Assembly (NCBI GenBank): GCA_947085845.1
Contig: CAMTXO010000002.1
Span: forward strand, 234,231-298,230
DNA from: an uncultured Candidatus Saccharibacteria bacterium
GTDB taxonomy: Bacteria; Patescibacteriota; Saccharimonadia; Saccharimonadales; Saccharimonadaceae
Length of the DNA stretch: 64,000 bases
Direction: 5' to 3'
Under the pieces are notes generated by a model, which was not told where the DNA came from, made no database searches, and saw nothing but the letters and a program-made list of their open reading frames with translations. Numbering within the stretch: position 1 is the first letter of the stretch; the number at the start of each line of letters is the position of its first letter. The position numbers and the translations under genes were made by a program. Of the stretch, positions 7,188-55,068 are shown one piece after another.

Positions 7188-7805
7188 CTATAGATTGGTT
7201 GGATTTGGCAATGCCATCACACAAAATGTTCCGCCACTACTACCGGAATATGTTTCTGAATAACCACTTGCGGGAGGAGTTGATGAGAATGTGCCGTATG
7301 GACTAAAACTAAGAATTGGCTTAGCTGAACATTGCTGCTGATAGCCATCTAGCATATATATGAGATACCAGGAATGCGTCACCCCGTCTAATGTCCACCC
7401 AGTCGCAGTATATTGAAACCAAGCACCTATGCGTGTTGAAGGACCGATATAAGGTATTGCCTTTGTACTGGGGGTAGGTAGCTCTGCAGTATTTCCAAGA
7501 TAGGGGCGTAGTAGGTTGTTCACGGTTGAGTTCTCGACGACACTTCCACCACCGCCACAGCCACTGGTATATGCCTCCCCTAGGCAAAAATTTGAGTTAG
7601 CTGGATATGCTCTATTGTCACTTGCATATTGGATCAGGGCTTTTTTGTACTGCTGAACAGTAGAGGTTGTTTGCGTATTCGAAGCTGTTCGGCGAATATT
7701 GCCATAAGTAATCATTATCAATGAAGCTAATATGCCAATGATAACGATAACGATTAAAAGTTCTACTATAGTAAACCCTTTTTGTAGGGCTGCCCGATTT
7801 CCCAT
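7188..7805 (-). CDS. Type IV pilin-like protein
   Basis: MGNRAALQKG|FTIVELLIVIVIIGILASL prepilin motif. The ORF-track start at 7907 is a TTG extension that runs through a terminator hairpin and the tRNA-derived repeat, so I use the ATG at 7805. Confidence 0.8.
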   Translation of the reverse strand: MGNRAALQKGFTIVELLIVIVIIGILASLIMITYGNIRRTASNTQTTSTVQQYKKALIQYASDNRAYPANSNFCLGEAYTSGCGGGGSVVENSTVNNLLRPYLGNTAELPTPSTKAIPYIGPSTRIGAWFQYTATGWTLDGVTHSWYLIYMLDGYQQQCSAKPILSFSPYGTFSSTPPASGYSETYSGSSGGTFCVMALPNPTNL

Positions 7806-7830
7806 ATCATAATGATAACGCTTTATACGA

Positions 7831-7856
7831 AAAAACCCAATCAATACTGATTGGGT
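7831..7856 (-). terminator. Intrinsic terminator-like hairpin
   Basis: Minus strand reads ACCCAATCA-GTAT-TGATTGGGT followed by TTTTTCG. It sits immediately after the tRNA-Met 3' fragment repeat. Confidence 0.6.
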
Positions 7857-7863
7857 GATTTCG

Positions 7864-7882
7864 TGGTAGCAGCGACAAGGAT
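7864..7882 (-). repeat. Direct repeat of the last 19 nt (including CCA) of tRNA-Met at 8042-8060
   Basis: + strand TGGTAGCAGCGACAAGGAT is identical at 7864-7882 and 8042-8060. Confidence 0.95.
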
Positions 7883-7893
7883 ATCGGCTAAAG

Positions 7894-7951
7894 CCTCCTC
7901 CGATCAAGCTTTCTCGAAGTGAACTTCTGCGAGAGCTTTCGCTACGCGAAC
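7894..7951 (-). other. Conserved ~58-nt structured core, copy A (paralog at 29855-29912)
   Basis: Minus strand reads GTTCGCGTAGCGAAAGCTCTCGCAGAAGTTCACTTCGAGAAAGCTTGATCGGAGGAG. It aligns with copy B with compensatory changes in the inner stem (GAAG/CTTC versus GGAA/TTCC). Confidence 0.7.
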
Positions 7952-8004
7952 TTTGTGACTATTTTGAGCAAGCTCAAAAGTCACAAGTTGATAACCTGAT
8001 AGCC

Positions 8005-8032
8005 AAATAAAATAGACCACCAATTGGTGATC
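8005..8032 (-). terminator. Intrinsic terminator of tRNA-Ser/tRNA-Met unit
   Basis: Minus strand GATCACC-AATT-GGTGGTC followed by TATTTTATTT. The stem contains a U-G pair that only works on the minus strand. Confidence 0.7.
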
Positions 8033-8041
8033 AATTTTATT

Positions 8042-8118
8042 TGGTAGCAGCGACAAGGATTGAACTTGTGACCTCAGGCTTATGAGTCCTGCGCTCTAAC
8101 CAACTGAGCTACGCTGCC
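8042..8118 (-). tRNA. tRNA-Met (CAU), elongator type
   Basis: Cloverleaf by hand: GGCAGCG/CGCTGCT acceptor (G1-U72), D arm GCTC..GAGC, anticodon loop CTCATAA, T arm ACAAG-TTCAATC-CTTGT, and encoded ACCA. The overall sequence resembles E. coli elongator tRNA-Met. Confidence 0.88.
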
Positions 8119-11000: not shown

Positions 11001-11078
11001 CGCGGGGTGGAGCAGTCTGGTCAGCTCGTGTGGCTCATAACCACAAGGTCGTAGGTTCAAATCCTACCCCCGCTACCA
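11001..11078 (+). tRNA. Initiator tRNA-fMet (CAU)
   Basis: CGCGGGGTGGAGCAG...GGCTCATAACC...GGTTCAAATCC...CCCCGCTACCA. It is near-identical in pattern to E. coli tRNA-fMet and has an unpaired C1xU72. Confidence 0.9.
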
Positions 11079-11104
11079 AGAGAATTTATAAAATACCCAG
11101 TTAA

Positions 11105-11521
11105 CTACTGGGTATTTTTGTTGCCGAAAAAGAAATTGAGCCAAGCTTGAAAATTACTGGTTGAAAATGTTGTCTTGGCTTTGTTGGCTTGCGTCGAGAT
11201 AGTATCGCTTACAGTATTGGCGGGTAAGATTAACATATGTTCGCCTGCTGAAGCTTTTGAGAATTGCTGTCGTGCCTGAAGCTCTAAATATTCGTTGCTA
11301 GCAAAATAAGTATTTTCGAGTGCTAAATTATCAGCCTCGAGCTTGCTCGATTCAACTTCAGATGCCAGTACATCAACCTGACTCTGCAGCACGTAGTTAT
11401 TTTGCAAAGCACCCATAGTACTCCAGATAAAACCTGAAGCCATTAAAATAGCGGCGGTCAACACAACATTATCAAGTGTGTAGTACTGTTTTATTTGGTG
11501 ACGAATCTGATGAAAGTTCAT
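11105..11521 (-). CDS. Septum formation initiator (FtsB/DivIC-like) protein
   Basis: One N-terminal TM segment, a coiled coil, then YLELQARQQF...GEHMLIL, resembling the DivIC/FtsB C-terminal signature. Confidence 0.6.
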   Translation of the reverse strand: MNFHQIRHQIKQYYTLDNVVLTAAILMASGFIWSTMGALQNNYVLQSQVDVLASEVESSKLEADNLALENTYFASNEYLELQARQQFSKASAGEHMLILPANTVSDTISTQANKAKTTFSTSNFQAWLNFFFGNKNTQ

Positions 11522-28434: not shown

Positions 28435-29220
28435 CTATTCTTCTGGAGGTAGTGTTGCTGAAATGAGCTCTGACCAGCCGTTTACTGGATCTTGCCACTC
28501 AACCTTCACCAAGTCGTCACCAGCTCCTCCGTAGTCAACTGAACCGATATACCAAGTCGCTGTACCGCCTCCAGAGTAATTGTCGTACTGTGTTGTCTCC
28601 ATAGATGCTGTATATACACCGTCTATGTACACTGCCGCACGAATAAGTGCAGTACCTTCATATCCAGGAGGGAGGTTGGAAGTGCTTAGACTGAATTGAC
28701 CTTTTAGTGGAGCTCTTCCCTCAACTTCTAAAGTACCGTATTGACTACTCCCCTCTATTGTCTCGCCATTAAATCCGTTACCCAATGCCTCCTGTTGAAA
28801 TCCGTTGCAATCTCCTGGGAGCGGGTCTGTATTTACAGAACTTACATGGTAGTTGACAATCTGAGTCGTTGGCCACAAGCCCACAATGTCGGTAATCTCC
28901 AAACAATAACATTCTCCGTCACCACACCAACCATAGCTACTGGCATATATATAGTTATTTTCATAAGAATCCGGTACGGTACCAGCTGGTAGTTGATCAA
29001 ATTGTGGATAAGCACCTTCTTTTTTCTTGTAATCTTCGATTTTTTGTCGTGCATTCGTCAGGATAGTCTTCATTTCGGTTTGTTTTGATGAGACCACTAC
29101 TGCACCCGCGCCTACATAGCTAATTGTGGCCAGTATGCCAATAACAACTATTACTACCAAAAGTTCTACAATAGTGAAACCTTTTTGTTTTTGAATAGTA
29201 AGAGAAGTGAGCTGCTTCAT
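28435..29220 (-). CDS. Type IV pilin-like protein (large, 261-270 aa)
   Basis: ...QKQKG|FTIVELLVVIVVIGILATI prepilin motif. The ATG at 29220 (MKQLTS...) or at 29247 could be the start. Confidence 0.78.
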   Translation of the reverse strand: MKQLTSLTIQKQKGFTIVELLVVIVVIGILATISYVGAGAVVVSSKQTEMKTILTNARQKIEDYKKKEGAYPQFDQLPAGTVPDSYENNYIYASSYGWCGDGECYCLEITDIVGLWPTTQIVNYHVSSVNTDPLPGDCNGFQQEALGNGFNGETIEGSSQYGTLEVEGRAPLKGQFSLSTSNLPPGYEGTALIRAAVYIDGVYTASMETTQYDNYSGGGTATWYIGSVDYGGAGDDLVKVEWQDPVNGWSELISATLPPEE

Positions 29221-29297
29221 GTTATTTGGAATTATAACATTATGCATAAGCGGTATGCAAACAACGATACGGCCCTAGACTTGCTATTATAAATACT

Positions 29298-29837
29298 ATG
29301 CAAATCATTGCTGAAGTTAAAACATTTTCTCCCTTCGGATGGGAGTCTGATAAGAGCTGGGATGAATTGTTCGAATCAGCAAATAAAATTGGTGATATTA
29401 TTTCTATACACACAGATCCGAAATGGCATGGATCTTTCGAACTTTTAGAAAAAGCTCGAAAATTAACAAATAAACCAATTCTTGCTAAAGGTATACACGC
29501 CCGCGATGAAGATATCGAACAAGCTGTACGATCTGGAGCTAATTACGTGCTTGTTGTTGGTAGGCTGCCAAAAATACATCTTGATAAATGTTTTATTGAA
29601 CCAAATACACTGAAAGAATTAGCAAATTTACCGAGTGATATCAAAGCTGTATGGAATAGTCGAGATCTTACTACTGGCGGCCTTAAAAAGCATACATTTG
29701 ATGATGCTCGAAAGGTCTTTGATGGGTGGTTATGTCAAGCAAGTAATATTTCTAGCTCTAAGGACATTAATAACAAAGCTGATGCTATTTTGGTTGGTAC
29801 ACATTTGGAAAATTTTAAAGTACACCCGACAGGATAG
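29298..29837 (+). CDS. Indole-3-glycerol-phosphate synthase (TrpC)-like minimal TIM-barrel protein
   Basis: IIAEVKTFSPFG / ISIHTD..W.GSFE.L / PILAKG / ILVGTHL are co-linear with IGPS motifs (IAEIKKASPSKG, ISVLTD, PIL.KDF, LIGSALM). The last 6 codons (KVHPTG*) are encoded by the tRNA-Arg-derived repeat. Confidence 0.55.
   Translation: MQIIAEVKTFSPFGWESDKSWDELFESANKIGDIISIHTDPKWHGSFELLEKARKLTNKPILAKGIHARDEDIEQAVRSGANYVLVVGRLPKIHLDKCFIEPNTLKELANLPSDIKAVWNSRDLTTGGLKKHTFDDARKVFDGWLCQASNISSSKDINNKADAILVGTHLENFKVHPTG
29820..29835 (-). repeat. Direct repeat of 16 nt of the 3' end of tRNA-Arg (29983-29998)
   Basis: + strand GTACACCCGACAGGAT is present at both positions. Confidence 0.93.
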
Positions 29838-29854
29838 CGCTTCACTTCGTTGCG

Positions 29855-29912
29855 CTCCTCCACTCAATATTTCTCGGAACAAGTTCCTGCGAGAGATTTC
29901 GCTACGCCGAAC
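29855..29912 (-). other. Conserved ~58-nt structured core, copy B (paralog of 7894-7951)
   Basis: Minus strand reads GTTCGGCGTAGCGAAATCTCTCGCAGGAACTTGTTCCGAGAAATATTGAGTGGAGGAG. Confidence 0.7.
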
Positions 29913-29946
29913 CTTACAGTTCTCGCATACTCACGTATGCAACCAT

Positions 29947-29971
29947 ATAAAAAGCCCATGACAAGCATGGG
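29947..29971 (-). terminator. Intrinsic terminator of tRNA-Arg
   Basis: Minus strand CCCATG-CTTGT-CATGGG followed by CTTTTTAT. Confidence 0.7.
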
Positions 29972-29980
29972 ATTTTTATA

Positions 29981-30057
29981 TGGTACACCCGACAGGATTC
30001 GAACCTATGGCCTTCGGCTCCGCAAGCCGACGCTCTATCCAGCTGAGCTACGGGTGC
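29981..30057 (-). tRNA. tRNA-Arg (GCG)
   Basis: GCACCCG/CGGGTGT acceptor (G1-U72), anticodon arm TCGGC-TTGCGGA-GCCGA, T loop TTCGAAT, and encoded CCA. Confidence 0.85.
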
Positions 30058-30250
30058 TCGTCAGCATTCACTCCATTTAGTCGTTTTACTACGTAAAAAC
30101 TTCTTCACTACGTCATGCTTCCTCTTTCGTTGTACAAACAGCACAAAAACAAGTGTTGCGCTTGGTTTGTCCAACGAGTCCAGGTACAAGACAGTATAAC
30201 AGATATAACCCTAGTCAACTAGACCCAAAAGCATTATACTTACGCTAACT

Positions 30251-31267
30251 ATGCAACAAAATATACCACTCAAAGATTACACTACTATGAGACTCGGGGG
30301 ACCAGCTAAATATATGGCTACTGCCGAAACAAAAGAAGAGCTTGTCTCCTTGGTTGAACAAGCGGGTACTTTGCCAATACTGGTGCTCGGACAGGGCAGC
30401 AATGTCATTGTGAGCGACAAGGGCTTTGATGGTTTAGTTATTCTAAATAGAATTACCGGGTACGAAGTATTTGATGAAAATCCTGCAACAACAAAAATAA
30501 AAGTTGGTGCCGGGGAAAATTGGGATTCAGTGGTAGCGCGAACAACAGAGATGGGGCTAAGTGGCATAGAGTGCTTATCTGCAATTCCAGGATTTTGCGG
30601 CGCTGCACCAGTTCAAAATATTGGTGCATATGGCCAAGAAATTGCCGACACACTACTCGAACTTGAAGCGTATGACCTACGCACAAAAACGTTTGTGACT
30701 TTTAGTAACTCAGATTGTGACTTCACATACAGAAGAAGTATATTTAATTCCGAGGCAAATAAACGTCGATACATTATTACGAGTTTAGTTCTAGAGCTTC
30801 AAAAAACTATCCTGGAGCCACCTTTTTATAGTAGTTTACAGATATATCTTGATAAAAATCAGATTACCGACTACAACCCATATAATCTAAGGGAAGCTGT
30901 TAGGACTATCCGTACTACAAAATTACCCGATCCAACTATTATTCCAAACACGGGATCTTTCTTTAAAAATCCAATTGTAGAAAAGTGGCAGGCTGAAAAT
31001 TTACAAAAAGAATATCCAGATATCAAAGTATTTCCTATGGATGAAAATTTTTCAAAACTTGCTGCTGGATGGCTTGTCGAAAATGCAATTATGAAAGATC
31101 TAGAAATGGACGGATTTAAGGTCTATGAAAAAAACGCGTTAGTTATTACAAACACAGGCTCGGGCACATATGAAGGTCTGGTGAACATTAAGAATCATAT
31201 AACGGAAGCAGTACGTGACAGCTTTCGCATAACATTGGAGCAAGAGCCAGAGGAGGTTGGAATATGA
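30251..31267 (+). CDS. murB: UDP-N-acetylenolpyruvoylglucosamine reductase MurB
   Basis: LKDYTTMRLGGPAKY N-terminus, FAD-binding GQGSN.., and C-terminal GSFFKNP motif. Confidence 0.9.
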   Translation: MQQNIPLKDYTTMRLGGPAKYMATAETKEELVSLVEQAGTLPILVLGQGSNVIVSDKGFDGLVILNRITGYEVFDENPATTKIKVGAGENWDSVVARTTEMGLSGIECLSAIPGFCGAAPVQNIGAYGQEIADTLLELEAYDLRTKTFVTFSNSDCDFTYRRSIFNSEANKRRYIITSLVLELQKTILEPPFYSSLQIYLDKNQITDYNPYNLREAVRTIRTTKLPDPTIIPNTGSFFKNPIVEKWQAENLQKEYPDIKVFPMDENFSKLAAGWLVENAIMKDLEMDGFKVYEKNALVITNTGSGTYEGLVNIKNHITEAVRDSFRITLEQEPEEVGI

Positions 31268-31959
31268 AAAACAAAGGATTTAGCGTGGTAGAAATGGTAA
31301 TTGTCATTACAATTATCGGGATACTGGCTGGCCTAGGTACCGTACAAATGCTACGGTCGCAGGCTGTAGCTCGAGATCAAGAGCGCGCAGATGACACACG
31401 ATCGATTGCAATTAACCTACAAGATATTTACGACACTGGTCAAATTGATGGTGAGATCATCGCTAGTGGTGACGGTACAATTACAAGCGCTGTTAACATG
31501 GGCTATCCGAGCACCGCACTACTCAATCCCCCAGCATCAAGCGCATCTCAGGCAAATGGAATTATACAGAGCATTCGATTAGATGCACTGAAAAGTCCGT
31601 ATCTTCCCAACTCAGCAACTAGTCCAAACTTTAGTATGGTTGCTGCCACCTCGACTGCAGACCTAAACAACACAAACAAAACCGCTGGGGGTATTACACT
31701 AGGTAAAACAAATGACGCATACGTGTATCAGCCTCTTGATGCTAATGGTGCATTGTGCGCATTTGCAACAGGGCTTGTCTCAACGGGAGTAGGTGCGAGT
31801 GCTACTATACCCACAAAAACAGGATCTACTTCTCAAGCTGTTATCGCACCTAGACTCGTAGATAATTGTGTAAAATTCAATTTATATTACTATTCGGAAG
31901 CAAACGATACGATTATCAAGGTACAGAGTGCCAAAAGTACAAGTGATGGTTTATACTAA
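31264..31959 (+). CDS. Prepilin-type N-terminal motif protein (minor pilin/pseudopilin-like)
   Basis: MKNKG|FSVVEMVIVITIIGILAGL. The start overlaps the murB stop (ATGA). Confidence 0.75.
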   Translation: MKNKGFSVVEMVIVITIIGILAGLGTVQMLRSQAVARDQERADDTRSIAINLQDIYDTGQIDGEIIASGDGTITSAVNMGYPSTALLNPPASSASQANGIIQSIRLDALKSPYLPNSATSPNFSMVAATSTADLNNTNKTAGGITLGKTNDAYVYQPLDANGALCAFATGLVSTGVGASATIPTKTGSTSQAVIAPRLVDNCVKFNLYYYSEANDTIIKVQSAKSTSDGLY

Positions 31960-31973
31960 TAACTATAAGTGTT

Positions 31974-32402
31974 ATGAATAAAAAACAATCTGGTTTCACT
32001 ATAGTCGAGCTACTAGTTACAGTCATTACGGCTGCTATGTTTGTGGCTATGTTTTATCAGCTATATGTTGTGTTGGTAGGTATAAATGCAACAGCTCGCA
32101 ACACTGCCCAAGCGAGTGATTTGGCGTATTCAAACCTTAGGCTATACCCTACTGTTGTTAGTACAGGCTTGACGTGTAATGCAGGTACGAATGTCTCAAC
32201 TACTGTGAATCTTATACCAGCTAGCGGCTCGCCAGTTGCTGTGACCAACGCTAATTACCCCGAACTTGGAGCGGTAACAGAACAACTAACGGCCCAATTC
32301 CCATACGGCTGCGCAGCTGTATACAATGTTGTAAAACTAGTATCAACGGTCACTTATGGATCTACGTCCTACAAGGTAAGTTATGCGACATATGTTAACT
32401 AA
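31974..32402 (+). CDS. Minor pilin-like protein
   Basis: MNKKQSG|FTIVELLVTVI. Confidence 0.72.
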   Translation: MNKKQSGFTIVELLVTVITAAMFVAMFYQLYVVLVGINATARNTAQASDLAYSNLRLYPTVVSTGLTCNAGTNVSTTVNLIPASGSPVAVTNANYPELGAVTEQLTAQFPYGCAAVYNVVKLVSTVTYGSTSYKVSYATYVN

Positions 32403-33123
32403 TAACCAAAAAGGCTTTACTTTGGTTGAAGTAGCCGTTATTGCACCTATGATGATACTGATTGCTTTGGCGATCGTGGCTGTGCTTGTTACGCTTGTCA
32501 GCAGTACTGTTGCTCCAAATGCAAAGGCGTTACTGATGCAACAGCAAGAAAAAGCATTTGATACTATTGAAAACGACATCAACAACAGCAGTACACTCCT
32601 CTCTACTTTGCCTGCAAATTTCAGCGATAGCGTCGCAAGCGACTACGCAACTCCACCGGCAAATACAGAAATATTACGAGTGCAAGGCTATGATCAGATA
32701 CAAAACCCAGGCGATACTAGTGGTACAAAAGTAATACCGGCTTTTAAAGATACTGCTGTATGTAGCAATATAACTGACCTTAGCGCATCGAACATTGTCC
32801 CGGTCGTTATCATTTACTTTGTAAAAGACAATATTTTATATAGAAGAACTTTAATCGAAGACACTCCCTCGAGCACATGCGGAACGAAATTGGCAAAAGA
32901 GACAGGATGCGCACAAGCCTCATGCACCAAAGACACTCAGCTCGTCCAAGGAGACACTATCCTAATATTTGACATAGAATACTACTCTACTACTACAGGA
33001 ACGACTACAACCACCCCTGCTTTGGCTAAAAGCGCCAAAATAACTATAAAGAGTGCTCTTAATGCGGGTGGTGACAGTATCGAGTATGCGGCTAGTATCA
33101 GGGCTGCACGACTAAATAATTAG
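32383..33123 (+). CDS. Minor pilin-like protein
   Basis: ...NNQKG|FTLVEVAVIAPMMILIAL. It overlaps the previous gene by about 10-20 nt. Confidence 0.7.
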   Translation: MRHMLTNNQKGFTLVEVAVIAPMMILIALAIVAVLVTLVSSTVAPNAKALLMQQQEKAFDTIENDINNSSTLLSTLPANFSDSVASDYATPPANTEILRVQGYDQIQNPGDTSGTKVIPAFKDTAVCSNITDLSASNIVPVVIIYFVKDNILYRRTLIEDTPSSTCGTKLAKETGCAQASCTKDTQLVQGDTILIFDIEYYSTTTGTTTTTPALAKSAKITIKSALNAGGDSIEYAASIRAARLNN

Positions 33124-33200
33124 TCAAAAAAAGTATTGCACTTATGCTTAGTATGGTATATGCTTTGTACATACAACAAAATTTAATTAGGGGGCAAAAG

Positions 33201-33635
33201 ATGACCTTTAACAATATTAAAATGAAAAACAAAGAAGGTGGCTTCACCATCGTCGAACTCTTGATCGTAATTGTGATCATTGGTATTTTGGCAGCCTTGG
33301 TGATTGTCGCTTACACAGGTATCCAAACTCGTGCACGTGATGCAAAGAGCCAAACTGATGCGCAAGCAATTCTTAAGAAAGCTGAAGCTTATGCAGCTGA
33401 CAGCAACGGTATTTACCCAGCTAACGAAGCAGGCTTTGGTACTGGTGTAGGTGCTTTAGGTACAGATCTTGCTGCAGTACTAGGTGACGGAACATCAGCT
33501 GTTCTTCCAGCTATTACAACTCACGGTGATATCCGTGGTTGGGCATGTGGTACAACACCAAACTTTACTGGTTACAAGATTCGTTACTGGTATAACGGTG
33601 CTGTAGCTACAATTGCTGCTGGTACAACTTGTTAA
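33201..33635 (+). CDS. Major-pilin-like protein, paralog 1
   Basis: SD AGGGGG lies 6 nt before the ATG at 33201. ...KEGG|FTIVELLIVIVIIGILAALVIVAYTG. A Cys pair is formed by WAC and the terminal C. The ORF-track start at 33144 has no RBS. Confidence 0.82.
   Translation: MTFNNIKMKNKEGGFTIVELLIVIVIIGILAALVIVAYTGIQTRARDAKSQTDAQAILKKAEAYAADSNGIYPANEAGFGTGVGALGTDLAAVLGDGTSAVLPAITTHGDIRGWACGTTPNFTGYKIRYWYNGAVATIAAGTTC
33238..33471 (+). repeat. Near-identical 234-bp block shared by the two pilin paralogs (copy 1); a second identical block lies at 33537-33601
   Basis: Compared base by base with 33857-34090. There are only six differences, all synonymous, clustered at about 33350-33385. Confidence 0.9.
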
Positions 33636-49695: not shown

Positions 49696-50814
49696 ATGAA
49701 ATATTTCCTACATCGCGCACTCGGTGCTGTTGGCATGGTTCGCGTCGGTATCCGTCAAGTGTACGGAAGATATTTTGGAAAAATAGAGCATATAGACGGC
49801 AACGCACGTCATGTGAGCGCTGAAATTGTAAAACGTCTCTGGAACGGCACTTTCTACCGAACAAGCTTGGGACATTATGATTTTTTCTGGATGCGTGACT
49901 TTGGTACAGTTGCTGAATCACTTACAAAATTAGGTCATGGAGAAAATGTTCGCAATACTTTAAAATGGGCACTTGTGCATTTTCAAAATATCGACCATGT
50001 AACGCTTTGCATTGATAAATCTGGTCGCACATTTAATGCACCAGATGGGCATAGTATAGACGCTTTACCTTGGCTGCTACACTCACTCGCAGTTAGTCAC
50101 TATGAATTAACACAGAAAGAACGAGTTTTTTTAAACCGTCGTTTGTCAAAATACTCCGAGAGATACATTGACTCTTTCACAGGTCATCTCACCAAAAATC
50201 TTTACGCTGAACTACGTGACGCGGTATTTTATGATCGTAGTGCATATTCGTATGCTTTGGTGGGTCGTCTAGCGGCTGCATCTCAAGAACTTGGCTTACA
50301 TTTTCCCTTTCCAAAAAGTCGTTATGAAGAAGCCTTGGTAAAATACTACTGGAATGGTTCGTTTTTTAGAGCTGACAGCAAACTAAATGTTTTTAGTGCC
50401 GACAGCGCCTTAATGCCTTTCTTTTTGAAGGTAGTTGAAGACGAAAAGTTGGTAAACAAGACATTCGACTATATAAACGATGAAAAACTTAACCGCCCTT
50501 ACCCACTCAAGTACAGTAAAATTGGCGGCAAAATACGCTATCGTTTCGGAATGGGGCCCATTGCGTTGCCAAACTACACAGGCAATAGTATATGGACATG
50601 GCACGCAACATTTTACCTTCATCTTCTTAAGCGCTATAAACGTCGCGAATATGGTCAAGAATATGAGAGATTTGCTTCACTAATCGAACGTCACGGTAAC
50701 TATCCAGAACTGGTAAACCCCGATGGGTCTTGGTATTATGCCCCCTTCTACCGTAGTGATCCTGGTATGGTATGGGCAGCACTTTTTCTAGAATTACCCA
50801 CCCCTCGCGATTAA
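49696..50814 (+). CDS. Glycoside-hydrolase-like (alpha/alpha)6-barrel protein (GDE_C/GH15/GH63-like), tentative
   Basis: The FFWMRDFG motif and protein size are the only support. The family call is weak. Confidence 0.4.
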   Translation: MKYFLHRALGAVGMVRVGIRQVYGRYFGKIEHIDGNARHVSAEIVKRLWNGTFYRTSLGHYDFFWMRDFGTVAESLTKLGHGENVRNTLKWALVHFQNIDHVTLCIDKSGRTFNAPDGHSIDALPWLLHSLAVSHYELTQKERVFLNRRLSKYSERYIDSFTGHLTKNLYAELRDAVFYDRSAYSYALVGRLAAASQELGLHFPFPKSRYEEALVKYYWNGSFFRADSKLNVFSADSALMPFFLKVVEDEKLVNKTFDYINDEKLNRPYPLKYSKIGGKIRYRFGMGPIALPNYTGNSIWTWHATFYLHLLKRYKRREYGQEYERFASLIERHGNYPELVNPDGSWYYAPFYRSDPGMVWAALFLELPTPRD

Positions 50815-51288: not shown

Positions 51289-53142
51289 TTATACTACATT
51301 TGTTAAGATATCTTGTAATTCTTGCTCTTCTTCTGAATTTAAAACAAAAGGAAAATCATTAGCACAGAATTTTATAACCCCATCAAGATCGTGTTTTTCT
51401 ACACCTAAGTAATCTTCTAATTCACCTCTTTTTAAGATGTATATCCCCTCTTTGTATTTTTCTTTTATACTTATATCTATTTGTTTTTGTTTTTTTTGGT
51501 CCTCCAGGTTAAAGGGTTTTATTACTCTCTTCGTTTTTATCTTATTTTCTAGGGAATTAACTTTGTAATCCTTGCTCTCGGCAATTTTTAATTTAATTAC
51601 ACAGTCATAGTCACCTAAAAAGAAGCTCTGTATTTTCCAGCCCTCAAGAAACTTCATCCACCTTTTGTGGCTATCTTTACCATCTATAGAAAGAACTCCT
51701 ATAGATTCACCAGGAAATTTTTTTTCTATAAAAGCTCTAAAAAAATATTCATCACTTATGCCCTCAACAAGCAGTATTCTATCTTCAAAGAATATTTTTG
51801 ATGAATTCGTATAGCTCAAATACTGTATTAGATCTTTGGTTTTAGAAGCTTCTACATTGGATTTGACTGACTTTGTATTACCACTATCATCTTTATACAA
51901 ACGAATCACACCTGGAATAGATACTTCATCTACAAAAGCAGGCGAATGAGTAACAAGAATTATTTGCAATTTCCTATCTTTAGAAAATTTTTCGATTATA
52001 TCCTTATACTGTCTTTGTAGTCTTGGGTGTAAGTGAAGTTCTGGCTCATCAATGATTACTATGCCGTCATTGACATTAAACATTCCTAGTGTTAAGAGTA
52101 AATCGATAATTGATTTTTCCCCTGAACTAAGGCTGTTATATGGAACTTCGCCATTGTTTTGTTTTAAGCAAAACTCAAAAGTATGGGTTTCGTATATATA
52201 ATCTTTTAGGTCAAATGATAGTCCTGAGTGCTTTTTAAGATACTTAATTGTTTCATCTTCTTCTAGCGCAGATCGGACGGCTTTTTCAGCTTCTTCTTTT
52301 CCATGCTTTTTTCCTGCAATATAGCCCTTGTCTATGAATTCCTGGAAAAAAATACTATTGCCATTTGACTGATCTTGATAATTACCAAGTGTGCTGGTCT
52401 TTAGCCCTTTTACAGTATTGATTTTTTCATTAAGAAGATCTGTTTTTGATTTGGCACGGCTAAAAGATAACGGGAAACCACTGTATATTCTGCTGGCGCC
52501 TTTCAATAGAAAAGTAGGCTTTAGATTATTTAGAGTATTACTTCCGTCTCCATTTGCATTAATCAGGTCTATTGCTCTGTTGATAAGTTCGTAATTCTCT
52601 AGGTACTGAGTCCATATATTTTGCACTTGTACAGTCGCAGTAATTTGCTGACCATAAATAAAGTCGATCTCTATGTCTTTTTGATTTACCATGAGATATT
52701 TTTTATCTGTTCTCTCAAGGTTAGTTAAAAAAATATCTATATTTTTGTTACTGTAAGCTGCTAAGCAGTTTGTGAGATCTGTAGATATACTTTTTATATA
52801 TTCTAGGTTCTTAATATCCGACTCTTCAAACAAGACAGAAAGCTTGACATTACCTCCGCCCTTGTCCTCTGAGTTTCGGTTGGCAATAAGATGTTCGATA
52901 TTTGTATTATCTTGAATAATTGTTTGTTTTCTAGATTGCTCGTTTATAGAACTACCGTAATTGAGGGTGTATTCACAAAAAAACACTTTCGTAAATATTT
53001 GGTTTATTATTTCAACCAGATTACTCTTGCCAGAACCATTAGGCCCAATAATAATATTGGGCCTATCATCTTCTAATACGATTGGTTCACTAGTTGTTGC
53101 GAAACTACGAATATTTGAAATTTGTATAGATCGCAGTTTCAT
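51289..53142 (-). CDS. OLD-family / PARIS-like ABC ATPase fused to a C-terminal Toprim (DUF4435-like) nuclease domain
   Basis: Walker A GPNGSGKS, signature LSSGEKS, Walker B VIIDEPELHLH, and H-loop VTHSP. The C-terminal region carries ILLVEGISDEYFF and FLGDYD (Toprim E and DxD), then GELEDYL. The SD AAGGAG lies inside the last dnaK codons. Confidence 0.75.
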   Translation of the reverse strand: MKLRSIQISNIRSFATTSEPIVLEDDRPNIIIGPNGSGKSNLVEIINQIFTKVFFCEYTLNYGSSINEQSRKQTIIQDNTNIEHLIANRNSEDKGGGNVKLSVLFEESDIKNLEYIKSISTDLTNCLAAYSNKNIDIFLTNLERTDKKYLMVNQKDIEIDFIYGQQITATVQVQNIWTQYLENYELINRAIDLINANGDGSNTLNNLKPTFLLKGASRIYSGFPLSFSRAKSKTDLLNEKINTVKGLKTSTLGNYQDQSNGNSIFFQEFIDKGYIAGKKHGKEEAEKAVRSALEEDETIKYLKKHSGLSFDLKDYIYETHTFEFCLKQNNGEVPYNSLSSGEKSIIDLLLTLGMFNVNDGIVIIDEPELHLHPRLQRQYKDIIEKFSKDRKLQIILVTHSPAFVDEVSIPGVIRLYKDDSGNTKSVKSNVEASKTKDLIQYLSYTNSSKIFFEDRILLVEGISDEYFFRAFIEKKFPGESIGVLSIDGKDSHKRWMKFLEGWKIQSFFLGDYDCVIKLKIAESKDYKVNSLENKIKTKRVIKPFNLEDQKKQKQIDISIKEKYKEGIYILKRGELEDYLGVEKHDLDGVIKFCANDFPFVLNSEEEQELQDILTNVV

Positions 53143-53148
53143 TTATTG

Positions 53149-55068
53149 CTACTCCTTTTTGGAGCCTTTGTCTTCGTCGATTACTTCACCTTCTACAGGC
53201 TCTTCTGTTTTCTTTTCTTCGCCTTCTTCTGCTGGTTCGCCTGCTGGCGAATTCTCAGCTGCAGCTGCTTCGTACAACTTAGCGCCAATTGGCATTACTT
53301 TTTCAGACAATTCTTTTGCAGCAGTTTCTAGCGCTTCTTTATCTGCAGCTTCGTCCGCCAAAACTTTTTTACCAGCTTCTACTGCCTCTTCGATAACTTT
53401 CTTGTCATCATCAGAAATCTTGTCCTTGTTTTCACTCGGTAGTTTTTCTGCTTGGTAGATACCGTTCTCTAGAGTGTTACGAGCGTCAATAGATTCGCGT
53501 TTTTTCTTGTCGTCTTCAGCATGAGCTTCGGCTTCTTTCTGAGCTTTTTCGATATCTTCTTTGCTCATATTTCCACTGCCAGAAATAGTAATAGACTGTT
53601 CTTTACCAGTTCCTTTATCTTTGGCAGCTACATTCAAAATTCCGTTTGCATCAATATTAAATGTTACTTCGATTTGTGGCACACCGCGAGGTGCAGGCGC
53701 GATGCCATCTAGCGTAAAGCGTCCGAGTGATTTGTTGTCGGTAGACATTTCACGCTCGCCTTGCAGTACATTGATTTCAACCTGCGGCTGATTGTCTGCT
53801 GCAGTTGAATAAGTTTCGGACTTGCTAGTAGGAACTGTTGTGTTTCGCTCGATCAACTTGTGAGTTACACCACCAAGAGTTTCGATACCAAGCGAAAGGG
53901 GAGTGACATCTAGAAGTAGTACATCTTTTACGTCCCCTGCTAATACTCCACCTTGTATAGCTGCACCAACGGCAACTACTTCATCCGGGTTCACGCCTTG
54001 CATAGGGTCTTTACCGAAAATTGATTTTACCTTTTCGACGACTGCAGGCATACGTGTCATACCACCAACAAGTACAATTTCGTCGATATCACTTGCTTTT
54101 AGTTTTGCGTCTTTCAATGCTTTTTCAACTGGTTTTGCCGTTGCGTCGATCAAATCACCTACGATTTCTTCGAGTTTGGCACGAGTCAGTTTGTATTCAA
54201 AATGTTTCGGACCATCTGCATCGGCAGTAAGAAATGGCAGGTTAATGTCTGTAGATGGAGTGCTTGAAAGCTCCTTCTTAGCTTTTTCGGCTTCGTCTTT
54301 GAGACGTTGCATTGCTGCATTGTCGCCTTTTAGATCAACACCGTTTTCTTTTTTGAATTCATCTAAAAAGTGGTTGACGATTCGGTTGTCAAAATCTTCA
54401 CCGCCTAGGTGTGTGTCGCCGTTAGTAGATTTTACTTCGAACACGCCGTCGCCTAGCTCTAATATAGATACATCAAATGTACCACCACCAAGGTCAAAGA
54501 CCGCAATCTTTTCTTCCTTTTTCTGATCTAGCCCGTACGCTAGAGCAGCTGCAGTTGGTTCATTGATTATTCGTTTGACTTCTAGGCCTGCAATCTTACC
54601 CGCATCTTTGGTTGCTTGGCGCTGTGCGTCGTCGAAATATGCTGGAACGGTGATGACCGCTTCAGTCACAGACTCACCTAGAAACGCTTCGGCATCGGCT
54701 TTTAACTTACTCAGGATCATTGCCGAAACAGCTTCTGGCGTTTCACTTCCGTCACCTAATTTTACTGCCACACCATTGCCTTTTTTGACAATTTCAAATG
54801 GCATTAGGTCGATATCTTTTTGTACTTCTTTATCTGTAAATTTACGTCCAATCAAACGTTTCACACCATAGATAGTGTTTTTGGCGTTCGTTACTCGCTG
54901 ACGTTGGGCAACTTGCCCAACTAAACGCTCGCCTTTTTTGTTGACTGCTACGACAGATGGCGTAGTTCGATTACCTTCAGCATTCGCAATAACTTCTGGC
55001 TTGCCCGCAACCATGTAAGCTACTGCGCTGTTAGTAGTACCGAGGTCGATTCCTATGATTTTGCCCAT
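53149..55068 (-). CDS. dnaK: Chaperone DnaK (Hsp70)
   Basis: GIDLGTTNS and DLGGGTFD motifs, full-length Hsp70, with an acidic tail. Confidence 0.97.

Follow-up and report, generated by a model that had tools for sequence, protein, structure and literature searches.

On the minus strand of the window, by which we mean the whole 64,000-nucleotide stretch of Saccharibacteria DNA analysed here, an intact tRNA-Arg(gcg) gene (29981-30057; ARAGORN; Rfam tRNA score 68.5 bits) is followed by a compact series of hairpins and then by a second copy of its own 3′ end. The first of these elements is a palindrome, T1 (29942-29984), which begins at the ACCA of the tRNA and has the features of a bidirectional terminator. 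Its arms (29942-29960 and 29966-29984; 19 nt, 95% complementary) extend 4 nt into the tRNA gene (ACCA/TGGT), and a terminator stem with a T-run at 29971-29955 is predicted for both strands. The minus-strand hairpin P0 (GCATAC-GTGA-GTATGC, 29925-29940) has a GNRA loop (GUGA), and its stem is compensated in the orthologue L022, which reads GCATGC-GCAA-GCATGT. P0 sits where a decayed antisense copy of the tRNA, A′, would be, with the start of A′ represented by TGGT at 29945-29942. P1 (29909-29922, minus strand) consists of GAAC/GUUC closed by the loop UGUAAG, in the RNAalifold pairs 27-43 to 32-38, and is weakened in this module; its relatives read (C)GAACC-GNRA-GGUUC(G).

The core of the module, GTTCGG...GGAGGAG, occupies 29912-29855 and was matched by covariance model R1 at 29855-29914 on the minus strand (84.6 bits, E 6e-21). 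According to the junction map, it takes the T-loop position of a second, partial copy of the tRNA. Most of it is one hairpin, P3/P4 (29862-29902), with a CUUG loop, one mismatch (C.U) and one G.U pair. The initial annotation had described the core as a string of separate motifs; the sequence is present as described, but the segment CTCTCGCAG...CGAGAAA...TGA forms a single long hairpin. An earlier register for P3 was replaced by the RNAalifold register, in which G.A mismatches become compensated pairs. Downstream of it, P5 (29836-29856) pairs AGCGC with GCGCT around an 11-nt loop; it is closed by pairs between GGA, from GGAGGAG, and UCC, from AUCC, and its length differs among family members. 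The module ends with the 16-nt distal repeat ATCCTGTCGGGTGTAC (29835-29820), identical to 29998-29983, that is, to tRNA positions 60-75, at a spacing of 163. The proximal copy, defined by repeat mapping, comprises the last 16-18 nt of the tRNA (29998-29981), and the distal one is most likely the original 3′ end of the gene, now displaced. Seventeen nucleotides past the distal repeat, an extra copy of the last 8 nt of tRNA-Arg, GTGTACCA (29795-29802, minus strand), could be the remnant of an older tail or part of a split tail. A convergent short IGPS-like (TrpC-like) ORF on the plus strand (29298-29837; Pfam PF00218, 1.3e-09) overlaps the repeat at its stop region, its final codons being antisense to the distal repeat, as had been noted. 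The layout first described for this locus, from the terminator and the GCATAC hairpin through the core and the 5-bp stem with its 11-nt loop to the 16-nt repeat, holds at all coordinates.

The other module in the window follows the elongator tRNA-Met gene (8042-8118) on the same strand. Its T1 palindrome (8003-8044; arms 21 nt, 90%) takes in the CCA of the tRNA. A′ (7980-7989) is an exact reverse complement of tRNA-Met positions 47-56, AACTTGTGAC (10 nt, 100%), and is followed by the hairpin P1a (7960-7979) and by A″ (7947-7959), a sense copy of the 5′ strand of the T-arm, GTCACAA(A)GTTCG. The core (7895-7954; model R1, 75.6 bits) leads into the P5 hairpin GGCUUUAGCC (7886-7895), then GAU, and then the distal member of a 19-nt repeat pair (7864-7882 and 8042-8060, spacing 178). 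The original host terminator of tRNA-Met now lies past the distal repeat (7827-7864, minus strand). Repeat mapping thus bore out both the common order of the two modules and their spacings of 163 and 178. The "variable hairpins" reported upstream of the core are present as well, but they are partly tRNA-derived, consisting of antisense and sense T-arm copies. P1a itself showed no similarity on inspection to an anticodon or variable arm, and was rejected as a copy of either.

Two occurrences of a 20-nt core pattern, and no more, were found in the window; 100 shuffles gave an expectation of 0. Covariance-model searches across Saccharibacteria genomes and metagenomes found 33 distinct core copies, only two of them in the window. 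Pattern matches at L006-L008, L011 and L021 were set aside as chance hits, from other phyla or with the module absent. Nearly every core has a tRNA gene about 100 nt ahead of it, and those with available flanks lie either behind a tRNA gene or within an array closed by tRNA 3′ copies, not at a single prophage end, the finding that would have reduced the two loci to ordinary att remnants. The targets include at least 12 isoacceptors: Met, initiator Met, Ser(tga, gga, gct), Arg(tcg, gcg), Pro, Val(cac, gac), Asn and Lys. As had been proposed from the two window modules, the repeat is specific to the local tRNA, each core being followed by a copy of the 3′ end of that same tRNA. Its bounds are constant across the family, from T-loop position 59/60 to the CCA, and an intact tRNA with a direct repeat of its 3′ segment bounds the insert not only in the window (16 nt and 19 nt) but in at least 20 other copies.

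The size of the module and the order of its parts are nearly constant over the 33 copies. The proximal repeat copy completes a normal tRNA, so that the insertion supplies the gene with a new 3′ end and, in T1, a bidirectional terminator abutting the CCA; then come A′, A″, the core, the second 3′ copy and the old downstream flank. A′ is an antisense copy of the 3′ part of the tRNA, matching the T-arm exactly over up to 15 nt and reaching past position 58 to about position 44; its 5′ part is decayed in most copies, for which reason we rejected the idea that a closure resembling an acceptor stem gives the module a tRNA-like form. The core measures about 60-90 nt and replaces T-loop positions 57-59 of the partial tRNA copy, and the functional tRNA beside it is uninterrupted. 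The matches to the local tRNA include A′ and A″, which are internal to the element, so every module is fitted to its own tRNA and is not a one-for-all unit with a target-site duplication; a pure duplication of the transposon or casposon style was rejected on the same grounds. Tandem arrays occur at L013 (three units of three subfamilies), L018 (two units) and L014 (three units with one gene in each), and at L029 tRNA-Asn and a module with an Asn tail are separated by seven genes in a 6.8-kb block. Mirror-image insertions are found on the 5′ side of tRNAs and include about 4 nt of the tRNA leader. Segment 29820-29980 thus belongs to an undescribed family of miniature tRNA-end insertion modules in Saccharibacteria, in which no recombinase gene was found.

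Orthologous sites without a module were found for two of the targets. In the window, the initiator tRNA-Met gene (11001-11078) and its flank (11001-11140, plus strand) served as an empty reference for L001 and L016, which have the same upstream flank, tRNA and downstream flank but carry a module between two copies of AATCCTACCCCCGCTACCA. tRNA-Arg(gcg) is unoccupied in two relatives; the CCA is 12 nt from the IGPS stop in L028 and 4 nt from it in L037. At this tRNA-Arg site there has also been turnover: L027 has a module of another core subfamily, and L025 and L026 carry a copy in which P1 has been deleted. An occupied site is longer than an empty one by an insert of about 145-165 bp and by a second copy of the final 16-19 bp of the tRNA. 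These comparisons show that the module is a clean insertion. The T1 sequence differs from the flank of the empty site; a tandem inversion duplication by snap-back at the native terminator was rejected for this reason and because it would leave the core unaccounted for. The earlier proposal that a small cargo, conserved and structured, is inserted site-specifically into tRNA genes is thus supported by the empty sites, by the at least 12 tRNA targets and by stems that covary.

Covariation was assessed on 32 copies of the core. The 13 pairs of the long hairpin were paired in 96% of cells, against 24-52% in slid controls, and in 8 of the 13 both sides had changed in a compensatory manner. The covariation score was 0.457, compared with 0.176 for shuffled alignments (0 of 500 shuffles reached 0.457) and at most 0.101 for slid ones. 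The compensatory changes indicate selection for a fold, in a sequence whose mean identity is 85%. The helices of the core are supported, as in structured RNAs generally, by compensatory changes beyond those of the controls. Single-sequence folding was uninformative (z from -0.2 to -3.3 overall), and the window copy folded by itself was unexceptional (-0.2 to -0.3). With the gathering thresholds of Rfam 15, whose families include small ribozymes, omega-RNAs, tmRNA and Y RNA, the whole window yielded tRNAs only. In 29700-30150, with E allowed up to 10, the highest-scoring match other than tRNA reached 18 bits against a cut-off of 70. The core family is a well-supported structured nucleic-acid motif absent from Rfam. 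A coding function was rejected on inspection, as the sense frames contain stop codons, length differences are not multiples of three and the stems are compensated. GNRA and CUUG loops are present on the tRNA-sense strand, and the balance of 11 G.U against 7 A.C pairs is only a lean toward that strand. Core coverage in libraries labelled "metagenomic RNA-Seq" amounted to two small contigs of depth 2, from libraries that may contain DNA, and index searches for RNA runs containing the module returned no match.

Copies with decayed repeats (L009, L010, L012, L019 and L023) scored 82-86 bits, equal to copies with intact repeats; because the core is kept where the repeat has decayed, it appears to be selected independently of the distal repeat. 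Purifying selection on the core whatever the state of the tail is what one would expect of a host-useful small RNA gene spread only by natural transformation and homologous recombination, with the 77-bp tRNA gene as the left arm, the 19-bp tail as the right arm, no dedicated recombinase, and a rare accident as the founding event at each tRNA. Competence and T4SS genes occur in these genomes, and ComEC and pilin genes are present. The distribution is also patchy across lineages, 2 of 8 tRNA genes being occupied in the window and 0 of 13 in L028 and L035-L037, and at the tRNA-Arg site of L027 a different core subfamily lies between the same flanks as in the window, an allelic replacement. Still, this explanation does not say why independent founders at no fewer than 12 tRNAs all placed the core at T-loop positions 57-59 with the repeat starting at 59/60, it does not account for the antisense copy, and 19 bp is very short for RecA. 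We regard it as unlikely.

Pfam searches of 30 ORFs of the window and of L004 and L014, together with precomputed Pfam lists for 13 loci, detected no recombinase or integrase domain in or beside modules or arrays, and no integrase or prophage adjoined the core at the examined loci. Extending L004 to 20 kb (L029/L030) and following homologues of one cargo protein of L014 (L031-L034) yielded only housekeeping genes or genes of unknown function. Simple modules contain no ORF, and their neighbours encode pilins, the IGPS-like ORF and MurB. No TnpB, IscB, IS110-type, Cas or reverse transcriptase gene was detected near modules with Pfam. Since no recombinase was found at modules or arrays, the mobilising activity is purely inferred. 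Pattern scans of viral contigs and blastn against phages and plasmids found no core, so a phage or plasmid origin was rejected, and no free, circular or phage-borne module was found in these collections. DNA runs were covered as assembled contigs, which drop rare variants.

These searches bear on the most conventional explanation, in which the modules are ordinary decayed att remnants, left after the deletion of large integrase-bearing islands or prophages, with the core as a conserved attP arm. Direct repeats of tRNA 3′ ends and tandem accretion are classical marks of integrase elements; in tycheposons, which form arrays at tRNA genes, successive insertions push older ones outward and degraded, cargo-only units occur (bioRxiv 10.1101/2020.12.28.424599). 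Some copies of the module are also plainly decaying, including L025 and several with decayed tails. Leftovers of this kind, however, would hardly recur as 33 copies of near-constant size and order in many genomes, with an integrase fragment in none of them and no match in viral, phage or plasmid collections, nor would they show compensatory changes that reflect selection for a fold or a core conserved where the att repeat has decayed. We therefore think this explanation very improbable. The modules share with tyrosine-integrase elements at tRNAs, tycheposons and CIMEs the full tRNA and partial 3′ copy that flank the insert, the restoration of the tRNA, an identity block extending from the T-loop as far as the 3′ end, the outward displacement of older insertions by newer ones, and the occurrence of degraded units with cargo only. 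Unlike them, the modules are only about 160 bp long, an integrase was seen at none of at least 30 loci, the partial copy has its T-loop split by a conserved, covarying hairpin core, and besides a palindrome that abuts the CCA there is a tRNA copy in antisense. Among the features that define tRNA-integrating islands and CIMEs, the tRNA with its 3′ repeat and the exact empty site are present, and no integrase domain was seen at the loci covered by Pfam; the enzyme could be encoded elsewhere in the genome. The T-arm is contiguous in a classical attP and split by the core here, and A′ has no role in the classical scheme.

Our best reading, to which we assign a probability of about 0.5, is that the module is a non-autonomous tRNA-integrating element bearing a structured RNA. 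The element would bring its own tRNA 3′ end and, much as attP recombines with attB, enter by a reciprocal exchange inside the 16-19-bp identity block. An enzyme might be supplied in trans or, alternatively, RecA might act on DNA imported by competent bacteria. Repeated entries would produce tandem arrays, some with cargo genes, which deletions would then erode. The core would act when folded as a single strand of tRNA-sense orientation, and this strand is most likely RNA made by read-through from the tRNA promoter. Its role could be that of a small RNA carried as payload, or of a structure that the mobilising machinery recognises.

A more specific proposal is that the module homes to tRNA genes as a self-contained device specified by its structure: the tRNA copies would fold, as ssDNA or RNA, to give either guides or an image of the target, and the core at the T-loop would be a handle for a recombinase that the element does not encode. 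We consider this possible but rather unlikely. In another reading, a recombination site specified by a folded single strand, A′ would pair with A″ and the tail in single-stranded DNA taken up by competence or a T4SS, giving a duplex image of the tRNA 3′ segment with the core bulging at the T-loop and P1a as the apical loop; one strand would be exchanged and replication would fix an irreversible insertion, as with integron attC and CTX-phage attP(+). The sense-antisense-sense layout, in which up to 15 nt of the T-arm are copied exactly in antisense, the strand-specific structure, the competence and T4SS genes of these genomes, and the way modules pile up and decay in place without an excision partner are all consistent with such a site. 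Hairpins of the GCGNAGC type, which are very stable in DNA, occur at P2 and P5. Against these stand the GNRA and CUUG loops, which point to RNA rather than DNA, the decay of the 5′ part of A′ in most copies, the lack of a recombinase in or beside modules, and the mismatch with the attC consensus. P1 reads CGAACC/GGTTCGG, and GTTCGGC breaks the RRR rule of the boxes RYYYAAC / GTTRRRY, with no integrase gene by arrays or tRNAs. The resemblance to integron cassettes and attP(+) nevertheless includes a site conserved on one strand, in structure more than in sequence, an inverted repeat that can rebuild a duplex image of the target, and units that travel without a recombinase in arrays of gene plus structured site, as at L014. 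It does not extend to the target, which is a tRNA gene and not attI or dif, or to R′/R″ boxes, IntI and a Pc promoter, which the modules lack; unlike attC, moreover, the core is strongly conserved in sequence and the units carry their own terminators. On balance, a folded-strand recombination site seems quite unlikely.

Slightly less probable, in our judgement, is an RNA-guided homing element in which the core is a scaffold and the antisense A′ and the sense tail are left and right guides that steer a protein encoded elsewhere to the cognate T-loop. The likeness to IS110 bridge RNAs and IS200/IS605 omega-RNAs lies in a structured scaffold at the element end followed by 16-19 nt identical to the target, and in antisense and sense segments flanking a single insertion point, T-loop positions 57-59; the universal T-loop sequence beside the target could serve as a fixed motif. 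Those systems, however, keep the RNA beside a recombinase or TnpB gene within the element, whereas simple modules contain no ORF, showed no nearby TnpB, IscB, IS110-type or Cas gene and no Rfam family match, and duplicate 16-19 bp as opposed to 0-2 bp. In addition, conservation of the core does not depend on the guide-like tail, whose decay leaves the core intact, A′ is mostly paired within P1, and the intact neighbouring tRNA would be a permanent self-target.

Other classes of element share single features with the modules. MITEs, REPINs and PATEs are likewise short, hairpin-rich, intergenic, non-coding, multi-copy and mobilised in trans, but the modules target a specific structural position of tRNA genes and are tailored inside to each tRNA; their T1 and P5/tail ends are not mutual inverted repeats, and the 16-19-bp duplication also departs from MITEs. 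Group I introns occupy the anticodon loop and have a P3-P9 core of at least about 200 nt, in contrast to a core of 60-90 nt in the T-loop of the partial copy, for which Rfam gave no intron match. At tRNA 3′ ends, casposons create duplications of about 14-15 bp, and the primer-binding site (PBS) of retroviruses is the last 18 nt of a tRNA, from the T-loop, with m1A58 relevant to it. The modules resemble casposons in the duplication of a tRNA 3′ end and LTR retroelements in a segment starting at the T-loop; they differ from both in lacking Cas1, polymerase, reverse transcriptase and TIRs and in having internal segments that also match the tRNA. Following the LTR analogy, A′ could be a primer-binding site, the T1 spacer a strong-stop cDNA and the 16-19-nt repeat a tRNA copied as far as a block in the T-loop, with subsequent homologous recombination at the tRNA gene. 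The span of the repeat from 59/60 to the CCA end, the exact abutment of CCA and element DNA, and a palindrome centred just past the CCA would suit tRNA-primed or -templated reverse transcription. No reverse transcriptase was seen by Pfam in the examined ORFs, however, and A′ runs beyond position 58 to about 44. The insertions on the 5′ side also contain tRNA leader, which means that DNA and not mature tRNA was copied. Such an origin is highly improbable.

The genomes of Saccharibacteria and other CPR bacteria are tiny and contain few mobile elements that can be recognised, yet strains differ in gene content. Through the module family, DNA is gained and turned over at tRNA genes by a concrete and repeatedly used route that can carry single-gene cassettes, and no integrase was seen. 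Were the homing-device reading true, it could explain cassette exchange at tRNA genes in genomes almost devoid of classical mobile-element genes, and a core acting as a guide or a folded recombination site would represent a new mechanism and a new class of guide RNA or recombination site. Should the mobilising activity be identified, the module might be developed into a tool for site-specific integration in Saccharibacteria, which are hard to manipulate. The modules are also usable as strain-level markers in metagenomes.

The tRNA-Arg(gcg) gene of the window (30057-29981, minus strand) is followed on the same strand by a predicted terminator stem with a T-run (29971-29955, predicted on both strands), the hairpin GCATAC-GTGA-GTATGC (P0, 29940-29925), the core (29912-29855), a 5-bp stem with an 11-nt loop (29856-29836) and a distal repeat (29835-29820). 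The terminator stem is part of a palindrome with 19-nt arms that reaches into the ACCA of the tRNA, and the 16-nt repeat, at a spacing of 163, is identical to the T-loop, T-stem and acceptor 3′ strand of tRNA-Arg. The module at tRNA-Met (8118-7864, minus strand) has its parts in the same order, with a 19-nt repeat and a spacing of 178, and a 20-nt core pattern matched exactly twice in the window when shuffles predicted zero matches. These results confirmed the initial annotation, which had placed a second module with these parts at tRNA-Arg, sharing its order and core with the tRNA-Met locus. Its claim that the repeat invades the 3′ end of the convergent TrpC-like coding sequence was also correct, the repeat overlapping the end of a short IGPS-like ORF (29298-29837). 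An extra GTGTACCA, the last 8 nt of tRNA-Arg, lies within the same ORF end at 29795-29802, 17 nt past the repeat, and could be a split tail or a remnant of an older module. The core at 7907-7953 contains two halves in tandem with 80% similarity to each other (sense strand AAGTTCGCGTAGCGAAAGCT and AAGTTCACTTCGAGAAAGCT), which hints at an internal duplication.

When one genome per species was scanned for the exact pattern, the core turned up in seven loci, each in a Candidatus Saccharibacteria MAG, and metagenomes added twelve true loci. Three more matches, in other phyla, came without the remaining module parts and were rejected as chance. A covariance model of the core, built on 25 copies and run on the DNA fetched for comparison, identified 33 distinct copies, just two of them within the window. 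Wherever sequence was available, a tRNA gene lay ~80-105 nt upstream of the core, or the core belonged to an array. The hosts listed comprise 12 kinds of tRNA: elongator and initiator Met, Ser(tga), Ser(gga), Ser(gct), Arg(tcg), Arg(gcg), Pro(tgg), Val(cac), Val(gac), Asn(gtt) and Lys(ctt). Behind each core, the tail copies the 3′ end of its own tRNA from T-loop position 59/60, and intact tails stop exactly at CCA. The specificity of the repeat for the local tRNA, first noted at the two window loci, extends to other tRNA genes. The insertion point is constant, and each module is tailored to its host tRNA. Nothing similar to the module was found in Rfam 15, IMG/VR contigs, GenBank phages or PLSDB plasmids, and full-text literature searches yielded no description of these modules; the modules form an undescribed family. 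In metagenome runs X1, X4 and X5, the core at 29855-29914 had a word depth of 100-380x while the window's own strain there had 6-15x, indicating that the core is carried by other Saccharibacteria in these samples that are far more abundant.

The module is an insertion, with turnover at its site. The initiator tRNA-Met of the window (11001-11078) is the unoccupied version of sites that are occupied in comparison loci L001 and L016; the upstream flank, tRNA and downstream flank all align, and L001 has an extra T1-to-core segment and a second AATCCTACCCCCGCTACCA. Relatives of the tRNA-Arg(gcg) site were traced via the neighbouring IGPS-like protein. This site is empty in L028 and L037, where CCA lies 12 nt and 4 nt, respectively, from the IGPS stop; L027 holds another core subfamily between the same flanks, and L025 and L026 have a type-1 core from which P1 and one base of P4 are missing. 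In the more distant genomes (L028, L035-L037), none of 13 tRNAs had a module, indicating that the distribution is patchy. A useful small RNA gene spread solely via RecA and natural transformation is an unlikely explanation, since the T-loop position is constant, which speaks against accidental founders.

Palindrome T1 starts at the CCA of the tRNA and is followed by A', the 3′ part of the tRNA in reverse complement and decayed to varying degrees, with exact antisense matches of up to 15 nt to the T-arm 5′ strand and T-loop (for example, GATTCGAACCCACGG in L010, 13 nt in L019 and 10 nt in the window Met module). A'' is a sense copy of tRNA positions about 44-56 that pairs with A' as helix P1, often with an inner hairpin, P1a; in the window Arg copy, the P0 hairpin stands in for most of A' and P1 is shrunk to GAAC/GUUC. 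A'' extends to C56, the core begins with G and finishes with ..CGA(T), and the tRNA copy picks up at positions 58-60. These junctions indicate the order tRNA (sense), palindrome, antisense 77-44, hairpin, sense 44-56, core, sense 59-77 and old flank. The module restores the tRNA 3′ end and supplies a terminator. A retro-mechanism primed by tRNA is very improbable as the origin of such modules. Behind the same tRNA-Met species in L001 (200-276), a different insert of ~150 nt (L001:1-200, minus strand) combines a T1 palindrome with an antisense copy of the T-arm and a degenerate J/P5 (GGCTTTAGCC), and ends in a contiguous 30-nt copy of T-arm and acceptor whose T-loop is without a core.

RNAalifold analysis of nine type-A modules and then a pair count over 32 copies supported one long hairpin in the core, P3/P4, with 13 pairs, 96% of cells paired and changes on both sides in 8 of the 13 pairs. 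Its covariation score was 0.457 compared with 0.176 in shuffles (0/500 reached 0.457), and slid partners gave no more than 0.10. P5 always folds into a hairpin, of variable length and sequence, with GGA closing on UCC. GNRA loops (GUGA, GUAA and GCAA in P0/P1) and CUUG loops (P4) occurred on the tRNA-sense strand only, and 11 G·U versus 7 A·C pairs lean weakly to the same strand. Single-copy folding was uninformative. The core is a conserved fold. A folded single-strand site resembling attC or the CTX-phage attP is a rather unlikely explanation of the modules. Cores beside decayed tails scored as high in the model as those beside perfect tails, and in three Ser(tga) modules, where T1 and P1a were diverged or compensated, the core differed at 3/60 positions, indicating that it is under purifying selection of its own. 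Tail decay beside intact cores makes a guide-RNA-like homing device doubtful, and plain decayed att remnants are improbable given that cores remain intact where tails have decayed. With the empty sites, tRNA-own repeats and covarying core, the initial proposal of site-specific integration into tRNA genes with a conserved structured cargo holds.

Modules also build arrays and decay in place. Three successive units with three core subfamilies, each ending in the same tail, lie behind a single tRNA-Arg(tcg) in L013, and two units behind tRNA-Val in L018. In L005, L010, L014 and L020, an older module's 3′ half and a second, decayed tail lie behind the module. L014 has a run of three units, each with one protein gene of unknown family, in the order terminator palindrome, gene, terminator, P0/P1, core and tail, with tails derived from different tRNA-Arg variants. 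A 6.8 kb block of seven genes separates tRNA-Asn in L029 from a module with the Asn 3′ copy as its tail; in the related L030, tRNA-Asn has a module directly behind it, and this block comes after that module. No recognisable recombinase was encoded in these array and cargo regions. A 2H-phosphoesterase/LigT-like gene (2′-5′ RNA ligase superfamily; L004:1633-2130 = L029:8860-9357) is just downstream of the displaced Asn module, and another family member is at L034:5159-5707. This family acts on RNA ends, and the position beside the Asn module is probably a coincidence.

A classical integrase, as in the comparable tycheposons (bioRxiv 10.1101/2020.12.28.424599), accounts for the repeats, empty sites and arrays but fails on the interrupted T-arm, the antisense copy and the missing integrase. 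We give a probability of about one half to non-autonomous integrative modules, which would enter by recombination inside the identity block that spans T-loop to CCA, with the activity provided in trans and the core acting as a structured RNA or folded strand in tRNA sense. For now, the family is best classed with the tRNA-targeting integrative elements, as a new variant with a structured motif that is also new.

On the 5′ side of tRNA-Arg, the window has 132 nt (30063-30194, between the -10 box, gttata, and the tRNA) that a related-strain contig from run X4 lacks, joining 30062 straight to 30195, which indicates an indel polymorphism at the same gene. A mirror-image insertion 5′ of tRNA-Arg(gcg) (minus strand; L025:3690-3800, L026 and L027:2380-2500) has the order promoter, 20-nt copy of tRNA positions -3 to 17, 75-95 nt and intact tRNA. 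The 75-95 nt include the D-loop and D-stem 3′ strand in reverse complement (GCTCTATCCAGCTG), and the repeat takes in ~4 nt of leader; the sense-antisense-sense logic is that of the 3′ module, with a different core.

Type IV pilin-like genes with the prepilin N-terminal methylation motif flank both window modules (7188-7802, 28435-29247 and 31264-33635). Near the tRNA-Arg/tRNA-Ser cluster of related genomes, runs of six or seven T4SS-pilin genes (PF18895; L028:2942-5630, L036:14264-17588 and L037:1713-4645) are accompanied by TrbC-/TrbL-like genes, indicating that a single-strand DNA transfer apparatus is present in the lineage. Elsewhere in the window, an OLD-family nuclease (51289-53142, minus strand; AAA_15/AAA_21 ATPase and OLD-like TOPRIM domain) between dnaK (53149-55068) and an ORF without a Pfam match (49696-50814) looks like an inserted defence gene.
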